Shown in pieces: positions 1 to 56,862 of a stretch of DNA of 64,000 nucleotides. Under the pieces are notes generated by a model. It was not told the DNA's origin and searched no databases. It saw only the letters and a list, made by a program, of their open reading frames with translations. The translations under genes and the position numbers were made by a program. Origin of the DNA: Tolypothrix carrinoi HA7290-LM1 (GTDB taxonomy: Bacteria; Cyanobacteriota; Cyanobacteriia; Cyanobacteriales; Nostocaceae); contig JAHHIK010000008.1 of the NCBI GenBank assembly GCA_019358935.1, positions 1-64,000 of the forward strand, in the 5' to 3' direction. Within the stretch, counting starts at the first letter, position 1, and each line of letters begins with the position of its first letter.

Positions 1-324
1 ATTGAAGACTTGCTTGATACTTTGCCGGAACCACTAAAAGAAAATATCACGGCGCTTGGTTAACCCTGCATCGTAGCTTTCATCCCCTGGCTAAAGCCAA
101 GGGGTTTTCAGCATACCTCTTATAAGAAAACTTTCTGTGTTCACATAGATAAACGTTTAAGAGTATTCCAAATGCCAACAGAACTGCGGTTCGTAGGTTG
201 GGTTGAACGAGTGTCCAACCCAACTTAGTGCTCATCTTTCTCCAAATCTCACGCCAAAACGCAAAGACTCAAAGTTTTCCTTTGCGTCTCTGCGTCTTTG
301 CGTGAGCCTTTTCTCTTAAATTCC

Positions 325-24117: not shown

Positions 24118-24184
24118 AACGAACCGCAGAGGACGCAGAGAACACAGAGGAATAAGAGTTAAAGAGAGTTTTTGCGTAAGTCCT
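24118..24184 (+). repeat. Dispersed CGCAGAG-unit repeat (AACGAACCGCAGAGGACGCAGAG...TTTGCGTAAGTCCT)
   Basis: Close copy at 30977-31044; related reverse copy at ~56830-56863. Confidence 0.8.
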
Positions 24185-30855: not shown

Positions 30856-31131
30856 TTTGAAATCCTCGTGAAAGCAATTAAATTAGGTTTGGTTAAAAGG
30901 AGTTATGTAGAATGCACTTATTTGAGTTGTGGCTGTAGTTCGTTTTTATGGCAGGATTTAGGCACGAGTCATGAGTAACGAACCGCAGAGGACGCAGAGG
31001 ACACGGAGGAATGAGAGGAGCGAGAGGTATTTTGCGTAAGTCCTGTATGATAAACTGGCGTATTTAGGATTTGCTAATGTATCTAGACATTTTTGGCTAG
31101 GTTGTAAATTATTAGTTGTAACTTGGCGGTA

Positions 31132-43712: not shown

Positions 43713-43755
43713 TAAACGCAGAGTGGCGCTGAGGTATACGCAAAGGTGCGCGGAG
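43713..43755 (+). repeat. Solo copy of the ~45-bp repeat that flanks the GxxExxY gene
   Basis: TAAACGCAGAGTGGCGCTGAGGTATACGCAAAGGTGCGCGGAG aligns with 55048-55093 and the reverse complement of 55473-55517. Confidence 0.85.
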
Positions 43756-43813
43756 TATGAGTTAGAGTTATTTGTGTTTGGTAAAAATTGGGATACAATC
43801 TTTGAATCTGCGT

Positions 43814-50160: not shown

Positions 50161-50328
50161 TAACGACAGCTTCTATTTTTATAACCACAGCTTCAACGTT
50201 AGTAACGACAGCTTCAACGTTAGTAACGACAGCTTCAACGTTAGTAACGACAGCTTCAACGTTAATAACGACAGCTTCAACTTTCATAAGCAAAACTTAA
50301 GCGTTGGTAACGACAGCTTTCACTTTCA
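50161..50328. repeat. 21-bp tandem repeat, 8 units (consensus TAACGACAGCTTCAACGTTAG)
   Basis: Exact 21-bp periodicity counted by eye. Confidence 0.9.
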
Positions 50329-51391: not shown

Positions 51392-52267
51392 TCACACCTC
51401 CGGTTCAATTCCCGCAGCTCTGAGTTGTTGTGCTAATCTATCAGCACGTTGACCTTCATCATCAGCACGTTGACGTTCCTCATCCGCACGTTGACGTTCC
51501 TCATCAGCACGTTGACGTTCATCCTCAGCACGTTGACGTTCCTCTTCTGCACGTTGACGTTCCTCTTCTGCACGTTGACGTTCTTCTTCTGCACGTTGAC
51601 GTTCTTCTTCTACACGTTGACGTTCTCTAGTTGTCAACTCCGAACCCCACAGCAGCAGTTCTCCGCTTTCATCCCACCAGCGCAACCAATAGCCATTTCG
51701 ATTTTCGCGGCTACCTTGCCATATACCTAAGAAAAGGTTCATTTCTCCAATCCAGCAACGATTATTTACATCTGGGGTTTGAATTTGATAGCGTCCTGAA
51801 TCATCCAATTGATAAACCTCCAGTACTCCAGTACTCGGTTCAAAAATTGCATAATTGGGAACTTGCAAAATCTGTTCGTAAAAAAACCACTTTCCCGGTG
51901 GATAAGTTGGTTTACTTGAATATTCCCCACCTTCGGTATCGGAAATAAATTCCATCACAATCACTGGAATATCTCCTTGAAGTCGCGGTGTATAACTGCG
52001 CGTCACTTCTTCTCGCGAAACCCGAATTGCTGGTACATATCCCCAATCAGGTGCTTTCACGACAAACTTATTATTTAAAGTGGCACAAATACCGTAGTTA
52101 GTGGTAGTCAAAGCATTCGCGGGTAATTTACCAGCAAATACCAAGCTTTCGGTTAACGCAGCAGCTAAAGGTGGTTGATTAATATTATCCACTGGCTCGT
52201 CATCTAAAATAAAATCGTCTGGTAACTTTTCCCAGGTAACTTCAAATGTGGCTGAATTAGCTAACAT
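51392..52267 (-). CDS. Uma2-family endonuclease with C-terminal ERQRA(E/D)E heptad repeats
   Basis: KAPDW, VMEFISD, FFYEQILQVP; 21-bp repeats ~51445-51625. Confidence 0.88.
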   Translation of the reverse strand: MLANSATFEVTWEKLPDDFILDDEPVDNINQPPLAAALTESLVFAGKLPANALTTTNYGICATLNNKFVVKAPDWGYVPAIRVSREEVTRSYTPRLQGDIPVIVMEFISDTEGGEYSSKPTYPPGKWFFYEQILQVPNYAIFEPSTGVLEVYQLDDSGRYQIQTPDVNNRCWIGEMNLFLGIWQGSRENRNGYWLRWWDESGELLLWGSELTTRERQRVEEERQRAEEERQRAEEERQRAEEERQRAEDERQRADEERQRADEERQRADDEGQRADRLAQQLRAAGIEPEV

Positions 52268-53286: not shown

Positions 53287-55014
53287 TTAAAACAAAAAGT
53301 ATCTTTGTGCCATTGGTAAAATCGTCGCCGGTTCGCAAGTCAGCAACTCTCCATCAGCGCGTACTTCATAAGTTTCCGCATCAACTTCAATGTGAGGTAA
53401 CGCATCATTCAACTTCATATCCCGCTTACTCAATTGACGTGTCCCGGAAACTGCAACAATTTGCTTTTGCAAACTCAACTGACTGGGAATTTCTCTTTCT
53501 AACGCTGCTTGCGAAACAAAAGTTAACGATGTGGCGTTCTTAGCACCTGCAAAACTACCAAACATCGGACGCATATGCACAGGTTGCGGTGTGGGAATAC
53601 TCGCATTAGCATCACCCATTTGCGACCAAGCAATCATTCCCCCTTTAACTACTATCTCTGGCTTCACGCCAAAAAAAGCAGGACGCCACAAACACAAATC
53701 TGCTATTTTACCCTCTTCCACTGAACCGACATACTCAGCAATTCCATGAGTAATTGCCGGATTTATCGTATACTTAGCAACATATCGCTTCGCCCGGAAA
53801 TTATCTGCTCTTTGCCCCTCTCCTTGTAGGAGAGGGGTTGGGGAGAGGTCTCCCCGCTGCACTTTCATTTTATGCCCCGTCTGCCAAGTTCTAATTATCA
53901 CTTCGCCTACCCGTCCCATCGCCTGAGAATCCGAAGAAATCATACTAAACGCGCCCAAGTCGTGTAAAATATCTTCGGCGGCGATCGTTTCCCGACGAAT
54001 GCGCGACTCAGCAAAAGCGACATCCTCGGCGATCGCTGGATCGAGATGATGACATACCATCAACATATCCAGATGCTCATCCAAAGTATTCACCGTGTAA
54101 GGGCGTGTCGGATTGGTAGAAGATGGTAACACGCACGGCGTACCGCAAACTTTGATAATATCTGGTGCGTGTCCTCCGCCTGCGCCTTCAGTATGGTATG
54201 TGTGGATAACGCGATTTTTGAAAGCAGCGATCGTATCTTCTACAAAGCCGGCTTCATTCAAGGTGTCAGTATGAATTGCCACTTGTACATCATACTCATC
54301 CGCAACGCTTAAACAAGTATCAATTGTTGCTGGCGTAGTTCCCCAATCTTCGTGTAACTTTAAGCCGATCGCACCCGCGTTAACTTGTTCTACAAGTCCT
54401 TGAGGTTGGCTAGTGTTGCCTTTGCCCAAAAATCCCAAATTGACGGGGAAAGCATCAGCAGCTTGCAGCATTCGGTAAATATTCCAGGGTCCAGGCGTGC
54501 AAGTTGTGGCATTTGTACCTGTAGCAGGACCCGTACCACCGCCAATCATCGTAGTAATACCAGAAGCGATCGCCACTTCAATTTGTTGCGGACAAATAAA
54601 ATGAATGTGGGTATCAATACCCCCAGCGGTGAGAATCATTCCTTCCCCCGCTAAAGCTTCAGTTCCAGGACCGATAATAATATCTACATTGTCTTGAATA
54701 TAAGGATTTCCAGCTTTCCCGATTTTGAAAATTTTGCCATCTTTAATGCCAATATCTGCTTTGACAATCCCCCACCAATCGAGAATTAAAGCATTTGTAA
54801 TCACTAAATCAACCGCACCATCAGCATTAGAAATCGGAGATTGTCCCATCCCATCTCTAATAACTTTACCACCACCGAATTTGACTTCATCGCCGTAAGT
54901 TGTGAAATCTTGTTCAACTTCAATAAATAATTCTGTATCAGCAAGTCGGACTTTATCTCCGACAGTGGGACCGAAAGTTTCTGCGTAAGCGCGACGAGAC
55001 ATTCTGTAAGGCAT
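53287..55014 (-). CDS. ureC: Urease alpha subunit
   Basis: [41 protein letters not shown]. Confidence 0.98.
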
Positions 55015-55047: not shown

Positions 55048-55517
55048 TTTAAACGCAAAGTGACGCAAAGGTAAGCGCAAAGGGTTCGCTGAGGATGGAT
55101 GAGAATGATTTGAGTGGGGTGATAATTGGCTGTGGGATGCGAGTGCATACAGCGTTGGGACCGGGTTTGTTAGAGTCAGCTTATGAGGAGTGTTTGTATT
55201 ACGAGTTGACAAAGAAGGGATTAAATGTTGGTAAGCAAGTTCCATTACCCCTTGTTTACGAAGAGGTGCAATTAGATTGTGTTTATCGATTAGATTTAAT
55301 AGTCGAAAATAAAGTAATTATTGAAGTCAAATCTGTAGAATCTATTAAACCAATTCACTCAGTACAACTTTTAACTTATCTCAAACTCACCGATTGCAAA
55401 CTCGGTCTTATTCTCAACTTTAACGTCCTCCACCTCAAAGAAGGCATTAAACGTGTGGCAAATAAACTCTAACTCCGCGCACCTTTGCGCTTCCCTCAGC
55501 GTCCCTCTGCGTTAAAA
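55048..55517. mobile_element. Candidate element: GxxExxY gene bounded by ~45-bp imperfect inverted repeats (55048-55093, 55473-55517)
   Basis: About 37/46 identity by manual alignment; IRs abut start and stop codons; interrupts ureB-ureC in antisense. Confidence 0.6.
55095..55472 (+). CDS. GxxExxY protein (PD-(D/E)XK nuclease-like)
   Basis: LGPGLLESAYEECL, YRLDLIVE, IIEVK, QLLTYL, GLILNFN. Confidence 0.92.
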   Translation: MDENDLSGVIIGCGMRVHTALGPGLLESAYEECLYYELTKKGLNVGKQVPLPLVYEEVQLDCVYRLDLIVENKVIIEVKSVESIKPIHSVQLLTYLKLTDCKLGLILNFNVLHLKEGIKRVANKL

Positions 55518-55616
55518 AATAAATATACCGTAAATTTAGTGATGTCTGAACAAGAGAGTAAGAGTTATCTTGTACTCAGAATACTGTAATAAAAAGTTAA
55601 AAAAGAGCAGTAAAAC

Positions 55617-55814
55617 TTGGCTAATAAGTACAAAGTCACTATGCGTATAACAGGTTCAGATTACAAAGAAATACGCGGCTTTTTTGGGGGAGTTACAATA
55701 ACAGGCACAACGGCAGAAATCACCGTGGAAGCCGACGATCCAGAAACAGCTAAATCTACTGTAAGTAAACTACTCGGTCATCGTTTCCCTCTTTTAGGGG
55801 CTACAAAACTGTAA
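55617..55814 (+). CDS. Hypothetical small protein (TTG start)
   Basis: 65-aa ORF with protein-like composition in the ureB-ureC gap. Confidence 0.5.
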   Translation: MANKYKVTMRITGSDYKEIRGFFGGVTITGTTAEITVEADDPETAKSTVSKLLGHRFPLLGATKL

Positions 55815-55992
55815 TTCAGTTTGTATATCGACTTAACGAAAACAAACCTGATATAAAAATTTACGCAAAAATGTAAAGGCGCTGAGAATCACTCTGCCTC
55901 TTTAAACTTTTGCGTGAAATTTCATATTTAAAATCAGCCAGTTTCCTAGTGACTGTATTGGAGTTTGAAATTAAACCTATTCAATAACCTTT

Positions 55993-56038
55993 TTTAAACG
56001 CACTCGTGACGCTGAGGGAAGCGCAGAGGTACGCAAAG
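55993..56038 (+). repeat. Solo copy of the ~45-bp GxxExxY-flanking repeat
   Basis: TTTAAACGCACTCGTGACGCTGAGGGAAGCGCAGAGGTACGCAAAG. Confidence 0.8.
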
Positions 56039-56043
56039 GGTTT

Positions 56044-56349
56044 TTAGAGGTTGCCATTAATTCTGGCGTTGAAACCGTAAACTTGTCGGCTACCAGCAAG
56101 AGGAATTAAAGTAACTTCTTTCTCATCTCCTGGTTCAAACCTCACAGCAGTTCCCGCAGGGATATCAAGACGCATTCCCCTTGCTTTTTCCCTATCAAAA
56201 TTTAAAGCCGCGTTAACTTCAAAAAAGTGAAAATGCGAACCAACTTGAATTGGTCTATCTCCTGTATTTGCCACCAGCAATCTTACAGTAGAACACCCCG
56301 CATTTAATTCAATTTCCCCATCAGACGTAATAATTTCTCCAGGTATCAT
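56044..56349 (-). CDS. ureB: Urease beta subunit
   Basis: [30 protein letters not shown]. Confidence 0.97.
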
Positions 56350-56362
56350 AAGTAATTAAAAA

Positions 56363-56510
56363 TGGATAGTTGATAGTTGATAGTTGATAGTTGATAGTGG
56401 TTAGTGGTTAGTCGATAGTCGATAGTCGATAGTAGTTCATAAAGCAACCAACAACTAGCAATTAACAACTAGCGACTAACAACTAACAACCAACAACCAA
56501 CTACTAACAA
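56363..56510. repeat. STRR inverted heptamer blocks between ureA and ureB
   Basis: GATAGTT units then AACAACT units. Confidence 0.88.
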
Positions 56511-56814: not shown

Positions 56815-56862
56815 CTTTCTCTCTTCCCTTTTCTCTGTGTCCTCTGCGCCTCTGCGGTTCGT

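Follow-up and report, generated by a model that had tools for sequence, protein, structure and literature searches.

GxxExxY genes lie between inverted repeats that follow the protein clade and also occur as dispersed single arms

The window analyzed here comprises the first 64,000 nucleotides of contig JAHHIK010000008.1 of Tolypothrix carrinoi HA7290-LM1 (GCA_019358935.1). It carries a GxxExxY gene encoding 125 aa (55095–55472, plus strand) between the urease genes ureC (alpha subunit, 53287–55014, minus strand) and ureB (beta subunit, 56044–56349, minus strand), both recognized by their Pfam matches. The left repeat, or arm (55048–55093, plus strand), consists of a TTTAAA head and four CGC[AGT][AG]AG units, an architecture that we named type A. 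A single G separates it from the ATG. The gene ends with a TAA at 55470–55472, and the right arm, of the same type and inverted (55473–55517, minus strand), begins on the following base. Unit starts are spaced by 10, 12, and 11 bp in the left arm and by 10, 12, and 10 bp in the right one, and the two arms are identical at 37 of 46 positions with one gap (30 of 46 ungapped). On re-reading the window, the coordinates of the repeats, ATG, and stop codon given in the original prediction proved correct, as did the 37/46 arm match, which includes the gap, the antisense position between ureB and ureC, and the four units at 10–12 bp spacing. The unit consensus it proposed, CGC(A/T)(A/G)AG, had to be widened at the fourth position because CGCGGAG occurs too.

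Two gene-less copies had also been listed, and both are present as solo type-A arms on the plus strand. The first (55993–56038; 37/46 to the right arm) lies 5 bp behind the ureB stop codon and has a degenerate first unit; an arm in a similar position is found in G025, G018, G097, and G055. The second (43713–43755; 37/45 to the right arm) occupies an intergenic slot prone to swaps, opposite a degenerate unit of another arm type, type E, near 43803. The window contains further solo arms of two other types: a type-B arm at 280–306 (minus strand), and type-C arms at 24121–24149 (plus strand; followed by a TGCGTAAGTCCT-type MITE end), at 30980–31008 (plus strand), and at 56833–56860 (minus strand), just upstream of ureA. 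The ureA-ureB spacer holds inverted tandem arrays of the 7-mer GATAGTT (56365–56510), which resemble those flanking the four-helix-bundle gene of contig C61 (L437). An arm or an array is found at every junction from ureD through ureC. The 526 bp between the right arm and ureB contain, besides the 55993 solo arm, a broken ORF and a hairpin. The ORF remnant (55526–55830) is unique in the genome and 85% identical to its counterpart in G060, which is broken too and occupies the corresponding position. The imperfect hairpin (55846–55935; about −15 kcal/mol as DNA) is a single copy also common to G060, and its ends, ACGCAAAA and TTTTGCGT, resemble a degenerate arm pair. Two 21-bp tandem arrays lie at 50161–50319 and 51440–51625, one intergenic and one coding; the latter encodes ERQRAEE repeats in a 291-aa ORF.

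The GxxExxY protein matches only two profiles of Pfam and NCBIfam, both over its full length: TIGR04256 (149.7 bits for a cut-off of 35, E 4e-44) and PF13366 (146.7 bits for a cut-off of 22, E 5e-43). Its structure model (pLDDT 93.9) predicts a PD-(D/E)XK nuclease fold of the RecB/Cas4 type. The best fold matches are 3ijm (Z 8.3), BpuSI (Z 8.0), and the Cas4 protein SSO0001 (Z 8.0; rmsd 3.3, 100 aligned), followed by Pcal_0546 (Z 6.8) and Hjc (Z 6.4); Z values of about 8 are modest and indicate the fold, not the function. Foldseek also returned a Cas4 as best match (E 3e-3, probability 1.0). These matches are mainly DNases (Cas4 proteins, restriction-enzyme domains, and Hjc resolvases), DDE, HUH, and recombinase folds are absent among them, and the protein has no additional DNA-binding domain. 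In an alignment of 92 sequences, D67, K79, and Q91 are invariant and E27, E77, and Y95 are conserved in at least 90%. The residues E27, D67, E77-x-K79, and Q91-xxx-Y95 thereby reproduce the patterns E..D..E-x-K and QxxxY, which we take to be the catalytic motifs of RecB/Cas4-type PD-(D/E)XK nucleases. Profiles, predicted fold, and motif residues all agree with the PD-(D/E)XK-like family assignment made at the outset. The median dN/dS is 0.10 over 210 pairs, indicating purifying selection. A PDB sequence search gave one weak match only (E 0.17), and the matches in the ESM Atlas were GxxExxY clusters only. The family is very large, with 17,357 clusters at 50% identity reaching E 1e-10 or better. 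Many of its top matches are proteins of 240–295 aa that contain a GxxExxY-like stretch twice and may be fused dimers (P0121–P0136), a hint that the protein may work as a dimer. The unit spacing of about one helical turn would suit cooperative binding on one face of the DNA.

The bracketing by arms is not peculiar to the urease locus. By eye, inverted arms were identified on both sides in 29 of the 30 best GxxExxY loci, our own included, the remaining one being broken by a contig end; two further arm types, D and E, came to light. We then scored 80 loci from Bacteroidota, Chloroflexota, Proteobacteria, Verrucomicrobiota, archaea, and others, two of which were dropped for short flanks. Of the remaining 78, 48 reached an inverted-flank score of at least 24; none of the 72 shifted windows and 2.4% of the 591 small ORFs did so. 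In an additional, mostly cyanobacterial set, the flanks were inverted at 31 of 36 loci versus 0 of 34. Inverted arrays are thus enriched around GxxExxY genes across taxa, as anticipated. On a 66-row protein tree, whose deep forks are weak and whose near-copies inflate clustering, the arm type changes 6 times, versus a mean of 23.9 after shuffling, and the two sides carry the same type in 57 rows. These comparisons support a gene-repeat link that is both specific and general. GxxExxY genes were found in 123 of 151 genomes of the host's taxonomic family and in 45 of 201 genomes of the phylum. At some non-cyanobacterial loci (L160, L187, L191, and L139), the gene-adjacent arms point outward, and at L160 the TAA of the arm head is the stop codon of the GxxExxY gene itself.

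Three GxxExxY genes are present in the T. carrinoi genome, each between inverted arms of its own type: four-unit type-A arms at the ureB-ureC locus, three-unit type-B arms with an 8-bp period around a paralogue on contig C3, and type-C arms around a paralogue on contig C47. Lenient patterns gave 56 arms of type A, 72 of type B, and 122 of type C, versus 0, 1, and 8 in the reversed genome. Arrays of at least three units number 152, versus 0–1 in three shuffles. Most arms are single and extragenic: there are 17 in-facing pairs within 600 bp among about 250 arms, and predicted ORFs, which make up 78% of the genome, extend into only 7 of the 56 type-A arms. Same-type pairs more than 200 bp apart consist of the three around the GxxExxY genes and one, on contig C30, without a recognizable gene. 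In addition, facing B and C arms surround an ORF of about 75 codons, which is not a GxxExxY gene, at G000 C160:6470–6760. Gene-end pieces are carried by 4 of 54 type-A solos (random 0.7%). We therefore rejected the idea that solos generally carry such pieces; the corresponding type-C result is confounded by purine-rich tails.

The number of solo arms follows the presence of the gene. The clade-A gene, called at E 1e-48 or better, was identified in 34 of 151 genomes of the host's taxonomic family, always as a single copy. All 34 have at least eight type-A arms (median 26.5, range 8 to 119), versus a median of zero in the other 117, of which 66 have none and 23 have at least eight. In 17 of 19 genera that include genomes with and without the gene, those with it have more arms even after its own are subtracted; as these genomes are kin and not independent, this genus-level pairing is the sole control for kinship. 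The correlation between solo counts and gene presence put forward in the original prediction is therefore observed. Among 11 arm-rich genomes without an intact gene that we examined, five have a broken or cut-off copy and none was found in six; G111, G141, G055, and G127 are arm-rich genomes without a detectable gene. Type E tracks its own clade in the same manner and independently: all nine clade-E genomes have 12–127 type-E matches, four of them without type A, and type E is absent from 17 of the 34 clade-A genomes.

Arm integrity shows the same trend. We measured it as the proportion of exact copies among four-unit-pattern matches with no more than three mismatches. In the 34 genomes with the gene, this intact share is 0.73 (701/961), versus 0.44 (249/567) in 49 genomes where the gene was not found; 63 genomes without matches lie outside the count. 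Gene-bearing genomes have the larger share in 18 of 18 genera, and once the gene's own two arms are removed, this holds for 16 of 18. In the five genomes with a broken copy only, the share is 0.71, which fits a recent loss and equally an effect independent of the protein. G061 (72% complete) has 121 three-unit type-A matches, no four-unit match, and no GxxExxY gene that we could find; its repeats are probably a distinct arm variant. Among solo arms compared at 21 orthologous sites between this genome and congeners (13 gapped comparisons excluded, some sites used twice), 0 of 462 core bases differ, versus 6.7% in the flanks and 12% at the variable positions. The divergence of whole arms (5.6%) does not exceed that of the flanks (6.7%, p 0.29), and the arms are therefore not hypervariable overall. 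That cognate solos are more numerous and better kept alongside the gene is expected if the protein acts on the arms, and their scarcity and decay where it is missing make it likely that the protein maintains and spreads its own repeats. The association between gene presence and arm integrity is correlative and does not reveal the route.

To see how solo arms arise, we examined 178 arm loci of four congeners (23 + 76 + 79) for their counterparts in this genome. Many congener arm sites are common to this genome. Insertion of a bare arm with target duplication was not seen at the 178 loci, of which 33 of the 76 and 30 of the 79 have no alignable orthologue. The clean polymorphic solo insertions are arms that travel as passengers of unrelated MITEs. 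At L225, the missing unit is a whole 190-bp MITE with its arm, bordered by a TTA duplication; at L344 and L347, the missing units are TA-flanked whole MITEs carrying an arm. In this genome, a MITE end is found close to 19 of 56 A arms, 49 of 122 C arms, and only 2 of 72 B arms; the random rate is 4.3%. A strict MITE pattern search gave no match, and the loose pattern is noisy (130 versus 45 in the control). One MITE family, marked by GTACAG ends and by a TWA duplication within CTWAG, has a variable cargo, either a type-A arm or 21-bp tandem arrays (in G000, C150:3929–4090, C36:7909–8321, and C17:84670–84878). Two further MITE families carry type-C arms, one with AGGACTTACGCA ends (202 end copies) and one with CTCCCTTCCCGC ends.

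Other differences between congeners are replacements. The arm type changes at one and the same site from A to C at L097, from B to C at L373, and from B to A at L385. In other slots, REP-like hairpins or tandem arrays of 7-mers take the place of the arm. The congeners G025 and G152, for instance, have a type-B arm in the ureA-ureB spacer, where this genome has a 7-mer hairpin. The slot at 43713 contains an arm here and in six of eight congeners examined (two of them degenerate) and other hairpins in two; in G018, it is short and empty. From these pairs, a direct swap and the independent filling of a favored junction are indistinguishable. The 7-mer arrays in arm slots are of the kind that flanks four-helix-bundle (TIGR02436) genes in this genome. 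Seven such genes were identified (L433–L439; contigs C54, C16, C26, C61, C25, and C74). All have a short tandem array upstream, each a different one; inverted arrays lie on both sides of four, and two look direct.

The gene itself appears to be a long-term resident. Clade-A genes occupy two main loci, ureB-ureC and a site behind a phosphorylase-kinase-like gene (PF19292/PF00723), and the 25 copies at the ure locus all fall in one supported clade (97/94). Clade A has therefore moved at least once and was then inherited. The gene is flipped in 1 of 25 copies at the ure locus, 1 of 14 at the second clade-A locus, and 3 of 16 at a clade-B locus. Among 30 ureB loci compared, the gene and its arms are present at 11, a lone arm at 3, and no arm at 11, while 4 have no ureC in reach. 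The remaining one, in G073, lacks the gene but has a two-arm hairpin that includes fragments of both gene ends, and the ureB locus of G072 has a single arm with a piece of a gene end. Both are deletion relics of the cassette. Retention of both arms by gene-less relatives, named at the outset as evidence against the idea, is seen nowhere except in the G073 relic. The TAA of the arm head serves as the neighbor's stop codon at 12 of 29 clade-A loci. In agreement with the earlier reading of this locus, no clear target-site duplication is visible. The filled/empty pair G033/G091 comes within one base of it, with TTAA at both ends when filled and once when empty, one A short of a perfect duplication; a microhomology deletion would account for it equally well, because arm heads end in the palindromic TTTAAA. 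Homologues were found on 8 of 72,556 plasmid records and on none of 50,697 phage records, and no relative was detected on viral contigs. In four public runs searched as assembled contigs, a weak test, no excision or inversion joint was seen at the cassette. The suggestion of an autonomous unit thus holds for the gene-repeat link and for a life style like that of RAYT/REP pairs, but an actively jumping element is not supported, given the single copy, the one clade at the ure locus, the two main loci, the near absence from plasmids and phages, and the third of type-A solos that lie near an end of an unrelated MITE. In the congener G150, some 350 bp of other sequence split the clade-A gene (L116/L069; C14:1268933–1269304).

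We give about even chances to a model in which the nuclease recognizes its own arm type and nicks or cuts it, and templated repair maintains and spreads the repeats. In this model, a single-copy, long-resident enzyme of predicted Cas4/RecB type would recognize the arm type specific to its clade and would nick or cut at the cognate arm. Repair would then copy from other arms, so that cores are kept, variable positions are shuffled, and arms are refreshed and rewritten, and the repeat family would slowly spread by this copying. An occasional flip or move of the gene would be a by-product of arm cutting and repair. The route through binding, cutting, and repair-driven copying is inferred, and part of arm dispersal is visibly due to unrelated MITEs. 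Several observations weigh against the model. Clean insertions of a bare arm were not seen, many A and C arms lie near MITE ends, 23 genomes without an intact clade-A gene still have at least eight arms, and genomes with only a broken copy keep a high intact share. Flips of a gene between inverted repeats need no special nuclease, and four-helix-bundle genes are also flanked by arrays, so that a host process could build such cassettes. To our knowledge, four-helix-bundle proteins have no nuclease fold.

More tentatively, and with chances that we put below even, GxxExxY proteins may be a widespread and undescribed group of repeat replicators that use a PD-(D/E)XK nuclease. Each clade would cut its own phased CGC/CAC-xxAG arm, and repair would write arms into gene junctions by replacement rather than by cut-and-paste. 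The arms would compete for intergenic slots with REPs and with the 7-mer arrays of four-helix-bundle genes. If true, this would provide a function and a target code for a family of over 17,000 clusters.

Alternatively, the protein might serve the host by binding the arms, for example in mRNA processing or stability at gene junctions or in nucleoid organization, with selection keeping the arms and MITEs and recombination spreading them. The gene indeed looks domesticated, being single copy, under purifying selection, and confined to one clade at the ure locus; the core bases of solo arms are fully conserved, and the new solo insertions observed arrived with MITEs. A stop codon also lies within 40 bp of the head side in 14 of 56 type-A arms and of the tail side in 10, versus 8% for random intergenic positions. 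Such a role leaves unexplained the inverted arms around the gene in many phyla, the arm-type swaps at L097, L373, and L385, and the twofold faster turnover of the variable positions within a fixed alphabet. Copy numbers spanning 8 to 119 among gene-bearing genomes also speak against it, and we regard it as rather unlikely, if the most serious competitor.

An RNA cassette, whose arms would pair in the transcript and let the gene be looped out by RNase III or by the protein, making insertion into operons tolerable, seems improbable to us. The arms are predicted to pair along their length in folded RNA, with z −5.0 on the urease strand and −3.7 on the gene strand. They match slightly better in cis than in trans (0.62 versus 0.58, p 0.017). 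Among related and hence not independent rows, left-A/right-G mismatches outnumber left-G/right-A ones (40 versus 16), a bias that would produce G-U wobble pairs on the gene's antisense strand. Promoter and terminator scans of the cassette stayed at shuffle level, the former in keeping with this alternative, and public RNA runs searched as contigs cover the cassette in pieces only. Pairing within a transcript is nevertheless hard to reconcile with a repeat family made mostly of single arms and with loci at which the gene occurs in both orientations. Most fold matches are DNases, Rfam gave no match above noise at the cassette, and neither the origin of the copies nor the decay of solos after gene loss would be explained.

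We give still less credence to a passive association, in which the arms came with the cassette and were amplified and homogenized by host gene conversion and MITEs, the protein being unrelated. The passenger arms on MITEs, the arm-rich genomes without a detectable gene, and the relics in G073 and G072 fit it, but the arm type tracks the protein clade, and since host conversion can use any template, integrity should hold after gene loss, whereas it drops in 16–18 of 18 genera. Finally, a classical autonomous IS inserting at TTAA/TAA, with the solos as its MITEs, would account for inverted ends that hug the gene, the TAA supplied to neighbors, the near-duplication at G033/G091, and the one or more moves of the clade, but is very improbable for a gene kept as one copy in 34 of 34 genomes at two main loci, nearly absent from plasmids and absent from the phage and viral sets, with no DDE, HUH, or recombinase fold and with most solos reduced to one arm.

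The pairing that we prefer to see as a nuclease acting on its own repeats shares several features with REPIN-RAYT systems, or REPtrons, as far as they are covered by the portions of the reports available to us (10.1101/119735; 10.1101/2021.07.10.451892; PMC3116915; PMC3733652). Both comprise a single-copy chromosomal gene for a small nuclease, vertically kept and bordered by inverted repeats whose family is scattered through extragenic DNA, and several paralogues per genome each have their own repeat group. In both, the repeats decay after gene loss (here a correlation) and plasmid occurrences are rare. One of these reports states that REPIN conservation depends on the RAYT, which is single copy and absent from plasmids (10.1101/2021.07.10.451892). 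According to the same sources, however, the RAYT is an HUH tyrosine transposase and REPs are GTAG/CGTC-tagged palindromes found mostly as inverted doublets, whereas the enzyme here is predicted to be of the PD-(D/E)XK (Cas4/RecB-like) type, the arms are phased non-palindromic 7-mers, and most copies are single arms. Lacking an HUH/tyrosine transposase fold, the GxxExxY system cannot use RAYT chemistry, and because both enzyme and repeat architecture differ, it is not a member of the REPIN-RAYT group. The RAYT/REP precedent invoked for this locus is thus apt for the life style but not for the enzyme chemistry or the repeats. TIRtrons similarly place a small gene within terminal inverted repeats that also form moderately abundant families, but TIRYTs are tyrosine transposases and their TIR consensus GGGGWSAS is unrelated to the arms (PMC3733652).

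The GxxExxY family (TIGR04256/PF13366 PDDEXK_3) is listed with function "Unknown" and multiple transfers in PMC3424549, whose available text makes no link to flanking or dispersed repeats. The literature that we searched, outside most subscription papers, contains no description of a GxxExxY-repeat pairing, and the system is real, general, and apparently undescribed. Each GxxExxY clade of this very large family gains a specific candidate substrate, and the three cognate gene-arm pairs in one genome offer a ready comparison of cross-specificity. If the protein maintains the repeats, the REPIN-RAYT life style would have arisen a second time, by unrelated chemistry, a large class of so far unexplained intergenic repeats in cyanobacteria, Bacteroidota, and others would be accounted for, and repeat persistence would become testable in a laboratory cyanobacterium.

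Four-helix-bundle genes, as in the intervening sequences of 23S rRNA, consist of a small ORF inside a stem. The TIGR02436 cassettes resemble the GxxExxY ones in placing a small ORF between arrays, and their array types fill slots here that in congeners are taken by GxxExxY arms. Unlike the 23S rRNA intervening sequences, the GxxExxY cassette lies outside rRNA, encodes a different protein, and has an RNA stem that is predicted only.

The small dispersed repeats (SDR) of Nostoc, from the same cyanobacterial group, were reportedly described by Elhai and colleagues in 2008 as very small mobile repeats. The GxxExxY gene is not named in the available passages of PMC3116915 and PMC4390886 that cite SDR. 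The CGCAGAG arms may already be catalogued as repeats among the Nostoc SDR families. Palindromic inserts of 46 bp (C43:58480–58526) and 54 bp (C51:48022–48076), polymorphic between congeners, lie inside arms and resemble SDR. They are present in 102 and 9 copies in G000, with 12 and 2 near arm units (random 0.9%).
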